The position numbers were made by a program, and so were the translations under genes. From a virus (Duplodnaviria > Heunggongvirae > Uroviricota > Caudoviricetes), in IMG/VR virus record IMGVR_UViG_3300034102_002786, positions 82,413 through 117,602 of that record: a DNA stretch of 35,190 nt; one strand, given 5' to 3'. Below, piece by piece: positions 3,909-35,095 of the stretch (positions within the stretch are counted from its first letter, which is position 1; every line of letters starts with the position of its first letter). The notes under the pieces are model-generated. The model was given only the letters and a program-made list of their open reading frames with translations. It made no database searches and had not been told where the DNA came from.

Positions 3909-4517
3909 ATGAAAAGATTAAGTAAAAACGATAAAGCATTCATTCAGTTTGTTAAGGATGAGTGTAAGAGATTGGGTATAAAGACCCATATTAAAGATGT
4001 GAAGTATGTAAAACTTTCCGGTAACATTAGATGTAGTGGATACTTTGATGATGTAGATGCTATCTTAGCATGTTCAATGGGTAAGTCGGATGGATTGGAA
4101 ATATTGGTACACGAATATTGTCACCTTACACAATGGCAAGATGGTTTGCATTTATGGAAAAAAGCAGGTAGAGCATTGCCTGTTATTGATGAGTGGTTGG
4201 AAGGTAAGTACAAAAGACCTCAAACGTTGGAAAACGCTTTCAATATCGCTATTCAGTTGGAAAGGGATAATGAAATGAGAAGTGTAAGAATGATTAACGA
4301 ATGGGGATTGAGTATTGATACCGATAAGTACATTAAGAAAGCTAATAGTTACTTGATGTTCTATAATTGGATGAAGCAAACTCGTAGATGGTGTAAACCA
4401 AACAATATGCCATACCACAATAAGAAAGTTGTAGCAGCAATGCCAACAAACTTTAAGTTGGATTATAGTAAGTTACCTAAAAGATTTGAAACAATTTATA
4501 GAGAAGAAAATATTTAA
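3909..4517 (+). CDS. HExxH metallopeptidase-like protein
   Basis: ILVHEYCHLTQW plus downstream LERDNE. Confidence 0.7.
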   Translation: MKRLSKNDKAFIQFVKDECKRLGIKTHIKDVKYVKLSGNIRCSGYFDDVDAILACSMGKSDGLEILVHEYCHLTQWQDGLHLWKKAGRALPVIDEWLEGKYKRPQTLENAFNIAIQLERDNEMRSVRMINEWGLSIDTDKYIKKANSYLMFYNWMKQTRRWCKPNNMPYHNKKVVAAMPTNFKLDYSKLPKRFETIYREENI

Positions 4518-4518
4518 T

Positions 4519-4890
4519 ATGGGAAAACTAAAAGAAAAGTTACTCAATAACCTAACGCCGGAAGAAATGGATGAACGATTTGGAATTTCGGCATTTGAAT
4601 ATGTAGAATATATGGAAAATTACAAACAATACAAACAAGTATCACTATTTGATGATAATGGTGACCTAATGCCCAACGATGTATTAGATAAAATGCTCAT
4701 AGAAAGAGAGCAATTAGAAAACGAATATTATCAGCAATCTGAAATTGATGACATCAACGATAGTATAAAATTGAAGTACACAGATAATGATATTTTATAT
4801 GTATTAGATGGGTTGGCAGGACCCGTTTTGACCCGTATGATACTGGATAAATTAAGGGGTGTTTGGAATACCAAAAATGGTGTAGAATAG
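4519..4890 (+). CDS. hypothetical protein
   Basis: Likely ATG 4519 (MGKLKEKLL). Confidence 0.75.
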   Translation: MGKLKEKLLNNLTPEEMDERFGISAFEYVEYMENYKQYKQVSLFDDNGDLMPNDVLDKMLIEREQLENEYYQQSEIDDINDSIKLKYTDNDILYVLDGLAGPVLTRMILDKLRGVWNTKNGVE

Positions 4891-4996
4891 CCCGTTTTTA
4901 TTCGTTTCCTGATGGTTTTGGGTGCTGGGCTGGGTATTGACCTTATATTCAAAAAGACCCCCTAAAATCGGTTAAAAATGGCATAATATATATTGA

Positions 4997-5058
4997 ATTG
5001 ATAATCAACACGTTACGTGAGGTTTTTGAGACACCCGGCTAACGTGTTGATTATCAAT
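4997..5058. repeat. motif cluster 1: perfect 19-bp inverted repeat
   Basis: ATTGATAATCAACACGTTA (4997-5015) and TAACGTGTTGATTATCAAT (5040-5058), 24-bp spacer. Confidence 0.95.
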
Positions 5059-5088
5059 AAAATTTTTTTGAAGATTTTTCCCTAAAAA

Positions 5089-5130
5089 TTTGGTAGTTTC
5101 GGGTATTATTTGTAGTTTTACTATATAAAA
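5089..5130 (+). promoter_or_regulatory. Bacteroidota-type promoter, TTTA variant
   Basis: TTTG 5089-92, 20 bp, TAGTTTTA 5113-20, then CTATATAAAA. Confidence 0.7.
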
Positions 5131-5138
5131 TTAAGATT

Positions 5139-5498
5139 ATGAGTTTACCTTTTGACCCGATTAGGGTATTTGAAACCGCTCCATTGATTGAGGGTTATGA
5201 TGTTATTAAAAATTCTTTCCCCGTTGTAGGTAAGTACACGGGTAGAGTTATTACTTACGCCGATGCAGTATATTCGGCATTGGAATCCTTAACTGAAGAT
5301 TATTCAGATTGGCCGGAAGACCAGGGGTTTGGTAGTTCAGATATGACCTATGCTCGTCAAAATTTCATTGATACAATGATTAGTTTGGCTAACCTTAATG
5401 GTTACTATACTACCGATTTCAAACCTTACTTAAAGGTTGTTGAATATTCGGAAGCTGAATATCACGAAACGATGTTGCGTAGGGAGCAAGGTATCTAA
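5139..5498 (+). CDS. hypothetical protein
   Basis: ORF track; first gene after promoter. Confidence 0.8.
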   Translation: MSLPFDPIRVFETAPLIEGYDVIKNSFPVVGKYTGRVITYADAVYSALESLTEDYSDWPEDQGFGSSDMTYARQNFIDTMISLANLNGYYTTDFKPYLKVVEYSEAEYHETMLRREQGI

Positions 5499-5520
5499 TT
5501 AACAAATAAAAATTAAGTAT

Positions 5521-5817
5521 ATGAATAGTAATGTAACACAATATGAAATGGACGGTAGAAACCGAGTAGTTTCTGAATTAGAAAACGAATTCGCTGTATT
5601 GAATATATGCGATGTTTGGGATTGGTTCAAAGTTAGTTTGAATGTTGATATTATGGAATTGGATTGGAATGGTGAATGTGAACACATTCTAAAGTTTTGT
5701 GAAAATTTCAGATTGTATCTTTACGAAGTGCCTGGTGAAAACTTTTATGAGTGGGAAGGTATTGAGAAGGCAAAGAGTATGGGTTATAAAGGTGTAATAT
5801 TAAGTTCATTAAGTTAA
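5521..5817 (+). CDS. hypothetical protein
   Basis: ORF track; AAATTAAGTATATG start context. Confidence 0.8.
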   Translation: MNSNVTQYEMDGRNRVVSELENEFAVLNICDVWDWFKVSLNVDIMELDWNGECEHILKFCENFRLYLYEVPGENFYEWEGIEKAKSMGYKGVILSSLS

Positions 5818-25722: not shown

Positions 25723-25895
25723 GGCTAACCTGTTGGTTTTCAATCGCTTATGGAATGTTATATAACGTATATTATGTTAAGTCACCAACACGCTGATTAT
25801 CAATCGGTTAGCTCGAAAAAAGGGGTGTTTTTCTTATATAATATATTATGTTAAATAGGACACCCGAGGCGGGGCGCAACGTGTTGATAACCAAT
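25723..25895. repeat. motif cluster 3: three degenerate copies
   Basis: GGCTAACCTGTTGGTTTTCAAT (25723-44), inverted GCTGATTATCAATCGGTTAGC (25792-812), GCAACGTGTTGATAACCAAT (25876-95). Confidence 0.8.
25755..25782. other. dif-like Xer recombination site
   Basis: ATGTTATATAA-CGTATA-TTATGTTAAGT: 11-6-11 layout, right arm 10/11 and spacer 5/6 identical to E. coli dif. Confidence 0.7.
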
Positions 25896-29539: not shown

Positions 29540-29569
29540 CCCCGCCTGTTTCTACCGGTGGGGTTTTTT
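29540..29569 (+). terminator. intrinsic terminator
   Basis: CCCCGCC / GGTGGGG stem then TTTTTT. Confidence 0.75.
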
Positions 29570-29611
29570 ATTTAGATTAATTCCAAATTACAAAAATATT
29601 TTCCAAACCCC

Positions 29612-29654
29612 TTGACTTTTACGAATATATTACTTACCTTTACTATGTAATAAA
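29612..29654 (+). promoter_or_regulatory. promoter, CTTTACTATGTAATAAA class
   Basis: TTG 29612-14, 20 bp, TACCTTTA 29635-42, CTATGTAATAAA. Confidence 0.75.
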
Positions 29655-29665
29655 AAGATAACGAT

Positions 29666-29920
29666 ATGAATACTCTCCGATTTAACCGCCACGAATTGTT
29701 CTCCGAAAAAATGATGGACTTTCACTCCACTACCCTTCGAATGGTTGAAGATTATCATATAGCTAGAGATGAAAGCTGGTTCACCCCACTATACAATATG
29801 TTGTGTGGTGTGTGGGATGGATACTACTATACTGAAATGTTAGAGATGGCCAAACAAATGGGATTACCTACCCACATCACTAACCGAATTGAATTTACTG
29901 AACGATACATTAAACTTTAA
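29666..29920 (+). CDS. hypothetical protein
   Basis: ORF track. Confidence 0.8.
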   Translation: MNTLRFNRHELFSEKMMDFHSTTLRMVEDYHIARDESWFTPLYNMLCGVWDGYYYTEMLEMAKQMGLPTHITNRIEFTERYIKL

Positions 29921-30148: not shown

Positions 30149-30300
30149 AAAACTGGCAATTAATACTAACCGCCACTCTTAGCGGTGTTACTTTTGTGTT
30201 CACACTTACCGGTCCTAACTTACTTACCCCTACGGTTAGTTGGACACTGTGTGTACTATCCCTATATAGTATAGGCTATAAAAATAATTCAGCTAAATAA
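30145..30300 (+). CDS. two-TM micro-protein (51 aa)
   Basis: MKNWQLILTATLSGVTFVFTLTGPNLLTPTVSWTLCVLSLYSIGYKNNSAK; ATGA-type overlap with upstream stop. Confidence 0.6.
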   Translation: MKNWQLILTATLSGVTFVFTLTGPNLLTPTVSWTLCVLSLYSIGYKNNSAK

Positions 30301-30705
30301 AATACTCTTAGTATATACCCATGTAACATAGACCCGATGTGGGTTGCATGGCATGGGTGATACATATTGATACATACCTATTCCTATGCAACCGTTGGTA
30401 GCAGTGGGTTGCATGAGACGGGACGGGGGGGACTGAATTTCTTGTGACTGAGAAAATAAAAGTTTGGCATGACCCACGCCTATGCCGTTTCCGCCCCGAG
30501 CCCGGTTTTTTCCCGTATAGGATTTTTATAGGGTAAGGTAGTACCTAGCCTGCCTTAATAGGGTGGACCTCTATCAATTTAGCTATTTCCCTTTTAGGAT
30601 GGATTAGACCCCCTTATTTTTGATGGTTTCGGTATGGGGTGTATATTGGGGTGGTTTTATGGTAAAGCTCGGGAAATCACAGTAAAACCATATAATATGT
30701 ATCTC

Positions 30706-30767
30706 TTTAATAATCAATAGGTTAGCTCGGGTTTAGAGCGGGCCCGGCTAACGTGTTGATTATCAAT
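30706..30767. repeat. motif cluster 5: inverted pair
   Basis: TTTAATAATCAATAGGTTAGC (30706-26) and GCTAACGTGTTGATTATCAAT (30747-67); same 20-bp inner spacing as cluster 1. Confidence 0.9.
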
Positions 30768-30788
30768 GAGGAATTTTTGGGGTTTTTC

Positions 30789-30832
30789 ATTGCTATATGG
30801 GTATTTTTTCGTATCTTTGGTATGTTAATAAA
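30789..30832 (+). promoter_or_regulatory. Bacteroidota-type promoter
   Basis: ATTG 30789-92, 19 bp, TATCTTTG 30812-19, GTATGTTAATAAA. Confidence 0.7.
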
Positions 30833-30858
30833 TTTCTAAATAAACAAAAATTAAGATT

Positions 30859-31116
30859 ATGAAAAGTTTTAAAGTTTCAGATGGTAAGGTAATGGTAGAT
30901 GGTGTCCTTTATGGTACTACTCCTATTAATGATGTAAAGGTTAGGGGTAAGGTAGGTACTATCCATTCTATCAACATTGAAGGTAGAGGTCAGTTCTTCC
31001 CTATTAGTGGGTTATTCAACGATGGTTCTATAAAGGTTGTTGATTCTACTACTGATGTATTGGATGTGGATGTAAAAGTAGAAAAGAAGAAAAGGGCTAA
31101 AAAGAGTTCTAAGTAA
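30859..31116 (+). CDS. hypothetical protein with basic tail
   Basis: ORF track. Confidence 0.8.
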   Translation: MKSFKVSDGKVMVDGVLYGTTPINDVKVRGKVGTIHSINIEGRGQFFPISGLFNDGSIKVVDSTTDVLDVDVKVEKKKRAKKSSK

Positions 31117-34695: not shown

Positions 34696-35034
34696 ATGGA
34701 AAATACATTTTTAATACAAAAGACACAACGTTATTTAGAGTTGTTTGCATCAAAAAACATCAAAGGATTAGAGGATGAAATATATAATGATTCAATTACT
34801 TTGAGAGATTGGAACGGTCAATGGGTTGGTAAACAAGCAGTTCTTCAAATGAATGAGGATTTGTTCAATAATGATTTTACAATTCAAATTGAAGATATTA
34901 AAGAATCTGAAGCAACCAGAACTACAATAGCCCTATTCAATTTAACAATAGCAGATACCACATATAAAGTTGTGGATATTATCGAATGGGATGCTATGAG
35001 TAAGATTTATAGAATCTTAGCATATAACGGATAA
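34696..35034 (+). CDS. NTF2/SnoaL-like protein
   Basis: YLELFASKNIKGL...ITLRDW...GKQAV...VVDIIEW pattern. Confidence 0.75.
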   Translation: MENTFLIQKTQRYLELFASKNIKGLEDEIYNDSITLRDWNGQWVGKQAVLQMNEDLFNNDFTIQIEDIKESEATRTTIALFNLTIADTTYKVVDIIEWDAMSKIYRILAYNG

Positions 35035-35068
35035 AAAGAAAGGGAGTGTTTAACTCCCTTTTTCTTTT
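35035..35068. terminator. bidirectional intrinsic terminator
   Basis: AGGGAGT / ACTCCCT stem flanked by A-run and T-run between convergent genes. Confidence 0.85.
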
Positions 35069-35095
35069 GAATACCTTGTGATTTATTATAACTTA

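Follow-up and report, generated by a model that had tools for sequence, protein, structure and literature searches.

Sequence comparison confirms that clusters 1 and 5, two regions of the window (the whole analysed stretch of 35,190 nucleotides), are copies of one promoter control cassette. Our complete reading, to which we assign a probability of about 0.6, is that they are paralogous promoter cassettes on which a dimeric protein would dock, that they would serve one promoter class of Bacteroidota type and that they could act as a joint for gene shuffling. Homology, conservation of position, constrained spacing, a locked AT box, association with a promoter class and swapping of the genes behind are all legible in the compared sequences.

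The window is the final 35 kb of a 117.6-kb IMG/VR phage contig. It has a G+C content of 33% and contains dozens of small ORFs, all on the + strand. Identifiable products are a DNA ligase, a glycosyltransferase, a methyltransferase and a phosphoesterase; most of the small genes fall into no Pfam or PHROG family. The contig represents a 53% fragment, in which no capsid gene is present. The gene behind cluster 1 is, however, common to this contig and to a complete 288-kb relative, G003 (76% identity), and because G003 encodes the T4 Gp23 capsid protein, we consider the phage group T4-type. It is a large, uncultured phage of Bacteroidota, and the window resembles one of the variable small-gene regions of such a group. 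Pieces of 8 kb and 6.5 kb, compared by BLAST in near and distant modes, gave no match among GenBank phages; tRNA and Rfam scans of the window found nothing.

Direct reading of the sequence located every motif listed in the original prediction where it had been placed. The parts of the two cassettes are:

4910..5138, + strand: cluster 1, paralogous cassette, 85-90% conserved in L304, L329, L365, L377, L395, L404, L429, L430, L318 and L400.
4910, + strand: TGATGGTTTTGG, read directly, as is TGATGGTTTCGG at 30621; G/T-rich tracts come after both (tract 4910-4934 in cluster 1).
4955-4963 (cluster 1) and 30606..30614 (cluster 5), + strand: AGACCCCCT motif, read directly.
4984-4992, + strand: AT box of cluster 1, TAATATATA, 14 nt before the distal core.
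4998-5008 and 5047-5057: left and right core of cluster 1, read directly.
5063-5069: T-tract of cluster 1.
5089-5092 and 5113-5120, + strand: predicted promoter of cluster 1, TTTG and TAGTTTTA.
30621..30662, + strand: G/T-rich tract of cluster 5, TGATGGTTTCGG, with GGGG runs; its composition is kept in L361, L393, G001 and G002, its sequence is not.
30693..30701, + strand: AT box of cluster 5, TAATATGTA, 14 nt before the distal core.
30707-30717 and 30756-30766: left and right core of cluster 5, read directly.
30707..30726, + strand: distal site of cluster 5, core TTAATAATCAA with TAG-GTTAGC flank, half of the family palindrome.
30727..30742, no strand: spacer between the sites of cluster 5, without similarity to cluster 1; its length is fixed, its sequence free.
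30743..30766, - strand: proximal site of cluster 5, CCCGGCTAACGTG-TTGATTATCAA, kept in 25 metagenome loci.
30772..30778, + strand: AATTTTT tract after the proximal site of cluster 5, kept in cluster-1-, cluster-4- and cluster-5-type modules.
30789..30832, + strand: predicted promoter of cluster 5 (family D1), ATTG, 19 nt, TATCTTTG, then GTATGTTAATAAA.
30859..31116, + strand: 85-aa gene behind cluster 5, of no known family.

In both clusters, two TTGATwATCAA cores stand exactly 49 bp apart, start to start. If the arms are counted as 20 nt, 20 nt remain between them, in agreement with the inverted pair with a 20-bp inner spacer described originally. The promoter that had been placed after the pair is present in both as well, in the form TTTG/ATTG - N19/20 - TAnnTTT(A/G), and ATG codons follow downstream of it at 5139 (cluster 1) and 30859 (cluster 5). 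The sites belong to a family with the palindrome TAAC-N3-TTGATwATCAA-N3-GTTA, which has about 24 members at 12 loci of the contig, nearly all of them placed shortly before promoters. For the 18-mer arm, 10 copies with at most 3 mismatches were counted where 0.05 would be expected. No loci of the contig other than clusters 1 and 5 have facing half-type sites whose cores are exactly 49 bp apart. In the proximal site of cluster 5, 25 nt are identical to cluster 1 (5034-5058) and 24/25 to cluster 4. The exact 21-mer of the proximal site had no occurrence in the viral contigs, and a full-text search of papers for the 11-mer core returned unrelated matches only, e.g. the streptococcal FabT operator.

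Plain pairwise local alignment of clusters 1 and 5 is marginal in the flanks (z 1.9 and 1.8) and gives z 0.2 in the spacer. We built a profile from cluster-1-type relatives, with the window's own copy left out, and searched it against the whole contig. Cluster 1 scores 256 bits. Cluster 5 reaches 61.4 bits (E 3.9e-18) over profile positions 19-284 of 285, and is the sole other full-length match in the 117.6-kb contig; other loci, including cluster 4 with 66 bits, match from the sites onward only. The claim that clusters 1 and 5 are homologous regulatory modules is upheld by this full-length match. Further, cluster-5-type sequences were scored segment by segment with the cluster-1 profile against 900 shuffles. 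The AT box (6.6-10.7 bits, shuffle maximum 5.3), the promoter (7-21 bits, maximum 4.3) and, weakly, the far-left flank (4.7 bits, maximum 3.1) beat all of them, so these segments do match better than shuffled controls, the point on which the original prediction had staked the homology. The spacer of cluster-5-type sequences scores zero, and the left flank, taken by itself, gives a weak match on the genome-wide scale (E 0.33, rank 3). Outside the sites, the box and the promoter, homology is thus faint. Scans of metagenomes and genomes for more copies yielded ten further cluster-1-type modules, 85-90% identical to cluster 1, and two cluster-5-type modules, L361 and L393.

In the left part of the cassette, TGATGGTTTYGG is not retained in cluster-5-type relatives, only its G/T-richness is. 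The AGACCCCCT motif precedes the AT box by about 29 nt in cluster-1-type relatives and in unrelated small phages, and by 87 nt in cluster 5. AGACCCC has only 3 copies in the 117.6-kb contig, each of them on the + strand and part of a promoter-upstream module. Triple G-run clusters number 9 on the + strand vs 1 on the - strand, with 2.5 expected; G-quadruplex potential or a G-run-binding factor may be involved. Clusters of at least three G-runs are located at window 4920, 23153, 24167, 25684 and 30420 and at four places upstream of the window, and several of them fall in left flanks of modules.

The AT box is locked to the site. TAATATRTA is found at offset -14 in 9/564 and 7/143 oriented site contexts of two independent collections, and almost never at other offsets from -40 to -9. 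It is depleted in the contig (7 found vs 16 expected), and three of the seven lie at -14 of a core. In both clusters, TAA of the box ends 11 nt ahead of the left core. Because the box overlaps the palindrome flank (TAATATG-TAAC), we regard it as an extension of one side of the site.

An architectural constraint on the spacing of site pairs is well supported. The distance from core to core is 49 bp in clusters 1 and 5 of the window, in 10 cluster-1-type loci, in L361, in L393 and in the L008 type, and 48 bp in L009 and L082; one variant of 59 bp was found. A distance of 48 or 49 bp is retained over six unrelated spacers: the cluster-1 type, L009, cluster 5 of the window, L361/L393, the G002 orthologue of cluster 5 and the AT-rich "L008 type" (two phages). 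When the viral contigs were scanned for site pairs at any core-to-core distance from 23 to 53 bp, properly flanked pairs were distributed bimodally, with 15 pairs at 25 bp, 15 pairs at 48-50 bp and few between. The suggestion that spacing is kept while the spacer diverges is borne out by these six lineages and by the scan. Spacing also agrees within a genome, 49/49 in the window phage (4998-5057, 30707-30766) and 48/48 in G002 (L009, L082), and the proximal core is TTGATTATCAA in all three modules of the window phage and TTGATTCTCAA in both G001 modules (L008, L083). In this small sample, concerted evolution of modules inside one genome is possible.

Cluster-1-type modules always begin 97-109 nt after the stop codon of one upstream gene family. 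L009 of G002 is a positional orthologue of cluster 1. The upstream coding sequence is about 90% identical, and the intergenic region keeps the G/T tract, ACCCCTAAAATC, TAATATGTA, both cores and the promoter as footprints; its 48-bp spacer is unrelated to that of cluster 1. L304 is a positional orthologue of cluster 1 too. Regions orthologous to cluster 5 exist in G001 and G002, where the same conserved non-coding stretch precedes them, and also in L361 and L393. In G002, equivalents of clusters 1 and 5 follow in the same order, 27 kb apart. Because of these positional orthologues in related T4-type phages, we consider clusters 1 and 5 old, stable paralogues rather than recent duplicates or transposons. 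Of the [quoted passage not shown] suggested earlier, homology of the modules and constrained spacing therefore stand, whereas mobility and recent duplication are contradicted by the positional orthologues and the constant upstream gene.

Genes behind the modules are a different matter. Four genes are found behind cluster-1-type modules, starting MSLPFDP, MSKVNFDYDLF (geneX), MMNSE and MRQTE, and four other gene families behind modules of cluster-5 type or position. GeneX is absent from the window contig. It lies behind cluster-1-type modules in L304, L329 and L400, behind a cluster-4-type module in L372, and at the cluster 5 position behind a 59-bp pair in L353 and a 25-bp pair in G001. In L304 it is inserted, promoterless, between the module and the cluster-1 gene. 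Direct search of viral contigs yielded no relatives of the cluster-5 gene; its orthologues were reached via contigs of cluster-1-gene relatives. In G002, the orthologue of this 85-aa gene is located two genes downstream of the module. We infer from these arrangements that the mobile part is the gene behind the module, not the module. A side observation concerns L082:1150-1470 (G002), where the module orthologous to cluster 5 drives a 107-aa GIY-YIG / SegE-like gene (E 5e-4, below the Pfam cut-off), inserted ahead of the cluster-5 gene.

The closest known counterparts are PeSL (promoter-early stem-loop) cassettes of T4-type phages, which consist of a strong host-sigma-type early promoter with a terminating stem-loop just upstream, and which are associated with differences in gene content between related phages and with mini-circles arising from exchange between adjacent cassettes (Arbiol et al. 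2010, PMC2839356; Comeau et al. 2014, PMC4122927). Our cassettes are likewise small composite regulatory units, repeated in the small-gene region of a T4-type phage, with an inverted repeat ahead of a predicted host-sigma-type promoter. They are sited where gene content of related phages differs by insertion, deletion or replacement, and both kinds of cassette are proposed as recombination joints; the genes behind ours have no known family, as in T4 hyperplastic regions. There are four differences. Firstly, the upstream part is here a conserved palindromic pair with 49-bp spacing and an AT box, whereas in PeSL it is a short G/C stem-loop shown to terminate. Secondly, hairpin potential is not conserved here. 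Thirdly, the predicted promoter is of Bacteroidota -33/-7 type. Fourthly, the sites occur also in unrelated phages and in genomes of the host phylum. If our reading is right, portable promoter cassettes as gene-shuffling engines, described for T4-type phages that infect Proteobacteria and cyanobacteria, exist in T4-type phages of Bacteroidota too, in an anatomy with paired putative protein-docking palindromes at fixed spacing and no terminator stem-loop.

The main rival to protein binding is nevertheless a terminator of the PeSL kind. The inverted pair would be transcribed from the upstream gene, the hairpin would stop transcription before the cassette's own promoter, and conservation would reflect common descent only. 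We find this unlikely, in spite of several facts that speak for it. Clusters 1 and 5 of the window fold at -29.5 and -34.3 kcal/mol (z about -6), pairing from arm to arm is possible in 15 of the 17 modules with 48/49-bp spacing, a T-run follows, the interval from the upstream gene to the promoter contains no other terminator, and in some 49-bp pairs elsewhere (L095, L111) the spacer itself is a clean hairpin with a T-run. But neither cluster-5-type L361 (z -0.3) nor L082 retains the hairpin. On the left, N3 takes the forms CAC, TGA, TTA and TAT, and the right one is GTG throughout; changes on one side are thus not compensated on the other. The T-run is offset by 5-7 nt from the stem. Neither cluster shows the G+C-rich stem directly before a U-tract that marks an intrinsic terminator: no terminator-like site was called on the + strand in 4400-5600 and 30190-30860. 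Because AATTTTT is kept equally behind inverted pairs and behind direct-repeat (cluster-4-type) pairs, we take it for a DNA element and not for a terminator U-tract. Any two palindromic cores can pair, therefore folding potential is explained as a by-product. Loss of the hairpin, missing compensation in N3, the offset T-run and the absence of called terminators together favour protein binding.

Conservation inside the site points in the same direction. The core is conserved over phages of widely differing G+C and the N3 positions vary almost freely, a pattern which fits protein recognition better than an RNA stem. An RNA hairpin of single palindromes was considered and rejected, N3 complementarity within them being 0.418 vs 0.383 in shuffles, which is too weak. 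The paired arms may still play a role at the RNA level, given the strong hairpin of the window phage.

Which protein might bind? The IHF consensus is WATCAANNNNTTR with an A/T-rich element 5' of it, as in lambda H' and in IHF-assisted promoters. By sequence alone, both arms agree with it through AATCAACACGTTA: each arm, AATCAA-CACG-TTA, is a full match, an A/T element is present about 10-19 nt 5' (the AT box at the distal site, AATTTTT at the proximal one), and the sites are placed upstream of promoters. They differ from IHF sites in that two arms are fused into a mirror-symmetric 25-bp palindrome, in their pairing at 25 or 48-50 bp and in their setting, Bacteroidota and phages without an IHF/HU gene. 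The mirror-symmetric core is presumably 2 bp tighter than IHF geometry, which counts against an IHF-type reading, and we know of no sequence-specific IHF in Bacteroidota. An HU/IHF gene (PF00216) is absent from the contig and from three near-complete or complete relatives, hence a binder of this family, if any, would be derived from the host.

A possible working of the cassette is as follows. Clusters 1 and 5 represent two old paralogous lineages of one promoter cassette of modular build, located where this T4-type Bacteroidota phage has its small genes (the hyperplastic region). From 5' to 3', the cassette comprises a G/T-rich tract, AGACCCCC, the AT box TAATATRTA 14 bp before the distal site, a free spacer of 38 nt, the proximal site, an A/T tract and a putative Bacteroidota sigma-A-type promoter of the subclass TAnnTTT(A/G) + (C/G)TATGT(T)AATAAA. 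The sites may be understood as arms of TAAC-N3-TTGATwATCAA-N3-GTTA, that is two mirror-image IHF-type consensus elements, with centres at about -72/-121 in cluster 1 and -61/-110 in cluster 5. Two dimers of a sequence-specific, probably DNA-bending protein would bind them, and this protein would more likely be encoded by the host than by the phage. The bound dimers might then shape the upstream DNA and so set activity or timing of the promoter class. Because all cassettes share about 110 bp with proximal site and promoter, they could serve as joints for gain, loss and swap of small genes among related phages. Binding, identity of the protein, activation and recombination as the mechanism of swapping are what we infer here. 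The 49-bp rule, the position of the AT box at -14 and the site-bearing promoter subclass provide concrete, testable handles for finding the binder of this motif, which is widespread in phages and genomes of Bacteroidota.

Promoters of Bacteroidota have the consensus -33 TTTG / -7 TAnnTTTG, and the predicted promoters of the window are of this type, with 19-20 nt between the elements. Two subclasses can be distinguished contig-wide, a canonical one (for example window 3864, 15138, 24672, 27143) and one with TAnnTTTA/CTATGTAATAAA (for example 5089, 11346, 25932, 28196). In a scan of the contig, which missed cluster 5 owing to its ATTG, sites stand upstream of 6/6 promoters with TAnnTTTA + CTATGTAATAAA and of 2/23 with canonical TAnnTTTG. 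This suggests that the sites tune one temporal or strength class of predicted promoters. The distance from proximal site to promoter varies between loci (about -52 to -80), too much for a strict rule of helical phase, which was rejected.

The tie of the sites to one promoter subclass is also what a middle-mode or delayed-early switch would look like. They could then be operators for a temporal regulator, activator or repressor, encoded by the phage instead of the host, and many genes of the contig are indeed without a known family. We consider this improbable. The same palindrome occurs in the unrelated small phages L085, L115, L159 and L183 and on contigs of very different G+C; core with AT box occurs in Bacteroidota genomes; and a non-exhaustive search found no shared phage DNA-binding gene. 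In the small phages, the composite AGACCCCC..TTAAAAAGGGGC-TAATATGTA-N5-core is present (L115:11055-11200; L183:4700-4830; L085:7780-7900; two places in L159). The wide occurrence of AT box and core in Bacteroidota genomes as well as in unrelated phages is explained most simply by a factor that the hosts have in common. Behind the sites of L115 and L183 stand two tandem DnaA-box-like TGTGGATAA repeats; near clusters 1 and 5 no DnaA boxes were found.

Cluster 3 (window 25733-25894) has three sites, 60 and 91 bp apart, and each interval contains a dif-like AT-rich 24-28-mer. In a single alignment of short blocks, the cluster-1 profile matches the 91-bp pair (cores 25793, 25884) to the cluster-1-type spacer halves GGGGTGTTTT and AGGACACCCG, with a dif-like 24-mer between the two matches; 91 is 49 + 42, and the extra 42 bp make four helical turns. 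One might imagine the inverted site pair as a scaffold with a slot, empty in clusters 1 and 5 (49 bp) and filled with a host-dif-like core in cluster 3 (91 bp). Cassettes would be assembly sites for a complex of bending protein and recombinase, with AT box and G-tracts as further parts, and site-specific recombination would swap gene cassettes between positions of cluster-1, cluster-4 and cluster-5 type. This is highly speculative and we give it little credence. In three relatives of the gene downstream of cluster 3, no module exists at the place of the cluster-3 module, so these relatives bear neither way on the idea of a filled slot.

Very improbable is the proposal that clusters 1 and 5 themselves are degenerate Xer/dif sites, with the AT segment as a half-site and the palindromes as accessory sequences, and that recombination between them excises 25.7 kb. 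The AT segment of cluster 1 does match the left arm and central region of E. coli dif, related site pairs of cluster 3 flank fuller dif-like sequences, and the cluster 3 alignment sets such a piece between spacer halves of cluster-1 type. As in dif or plasmid cer-type Xer sites, the resembling piece is an AT-rich 9-14-mer. Unlike in them, the second arm is missing: clusters 1 and 5 do not contain two inverted 11-bp arms around a 6-8-bp central region, and by our own reading the position of the right arm overlaps the palindrome core and matches poorly, at about 4-5/11 positions of TTATGTTAA(A/G)T of cluster 3. Moreover, the box lies outside the site pair instead of between its members, many phages have it fixed at -14 from the core in the manner of a flank extension, and G002 retains both modules in order, 27 kb apart. 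The "dif left arm" of the original prediction is thus not a dif site, having no right arm, and a false lead is removed; the real link to dif is with the dif-like sites of cluster 3.

Hardly credible, finally, is a small MITE-like mobile element recently inserted at two places, for although L115 and the left half of cluster 1 share about 62 nt at about 90% identity and a repeat with AT box and core sits at many contig ends of the MAG JBEEMZ01, both modules have positional orthologues (the cluster-1 type constantly 108 nt behind the same upstream gene), clusters 1 and 5 have wholly different spacers and little in common over most of the left flank, all copies have one orientation relative to genes, and an unsystematic look revealed no target-site duplication. 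Near-identical copies at non-orthologous positions, with empty sites in relatives, would be the mark of such an element, and this does not describe the two modules. The repeat of this Bacteroidota MAG is dispersed, carries TAATATGTA-AATAA-TTGATTATCAA and lies about 50 nt from many contig ends (L197, L202, L205, L239, L248, L257, L276 and others); because of this location we consider it a multi-copy element that breaks the assembly.

Several minor observations concern the surroundings of the cassettes. Upstream of cluster 5, window 30300-30600 is a 300-nt non-coding stretch kept in L361, L393, L353, G001 and G002, with 80% identity over 115 nt in G001. It contains GTGGGTTGCATG at 30339 and 30404 and an inverted TGCAACC/GGTTGCA core near 30385. 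A structured RNA at 30330-30570 was rejected, since the RNAalifold consensus is -9.4 kcal/mol without covariation support. A terminator-like hairpin with a T-run at 29541-29570 is followed by a promoter at 29605-29667, of the CTATGTAATAAA class with a TTGAC-like -33 element and without a palindromic site; it heads three small genes missing at the orthologous place in G001 and G002. A clean intrinsic terminator is present at 35034-35075 (AAAGGGAGT..ACTCCCTTT and a T-run), after the last complete gene of the contig.
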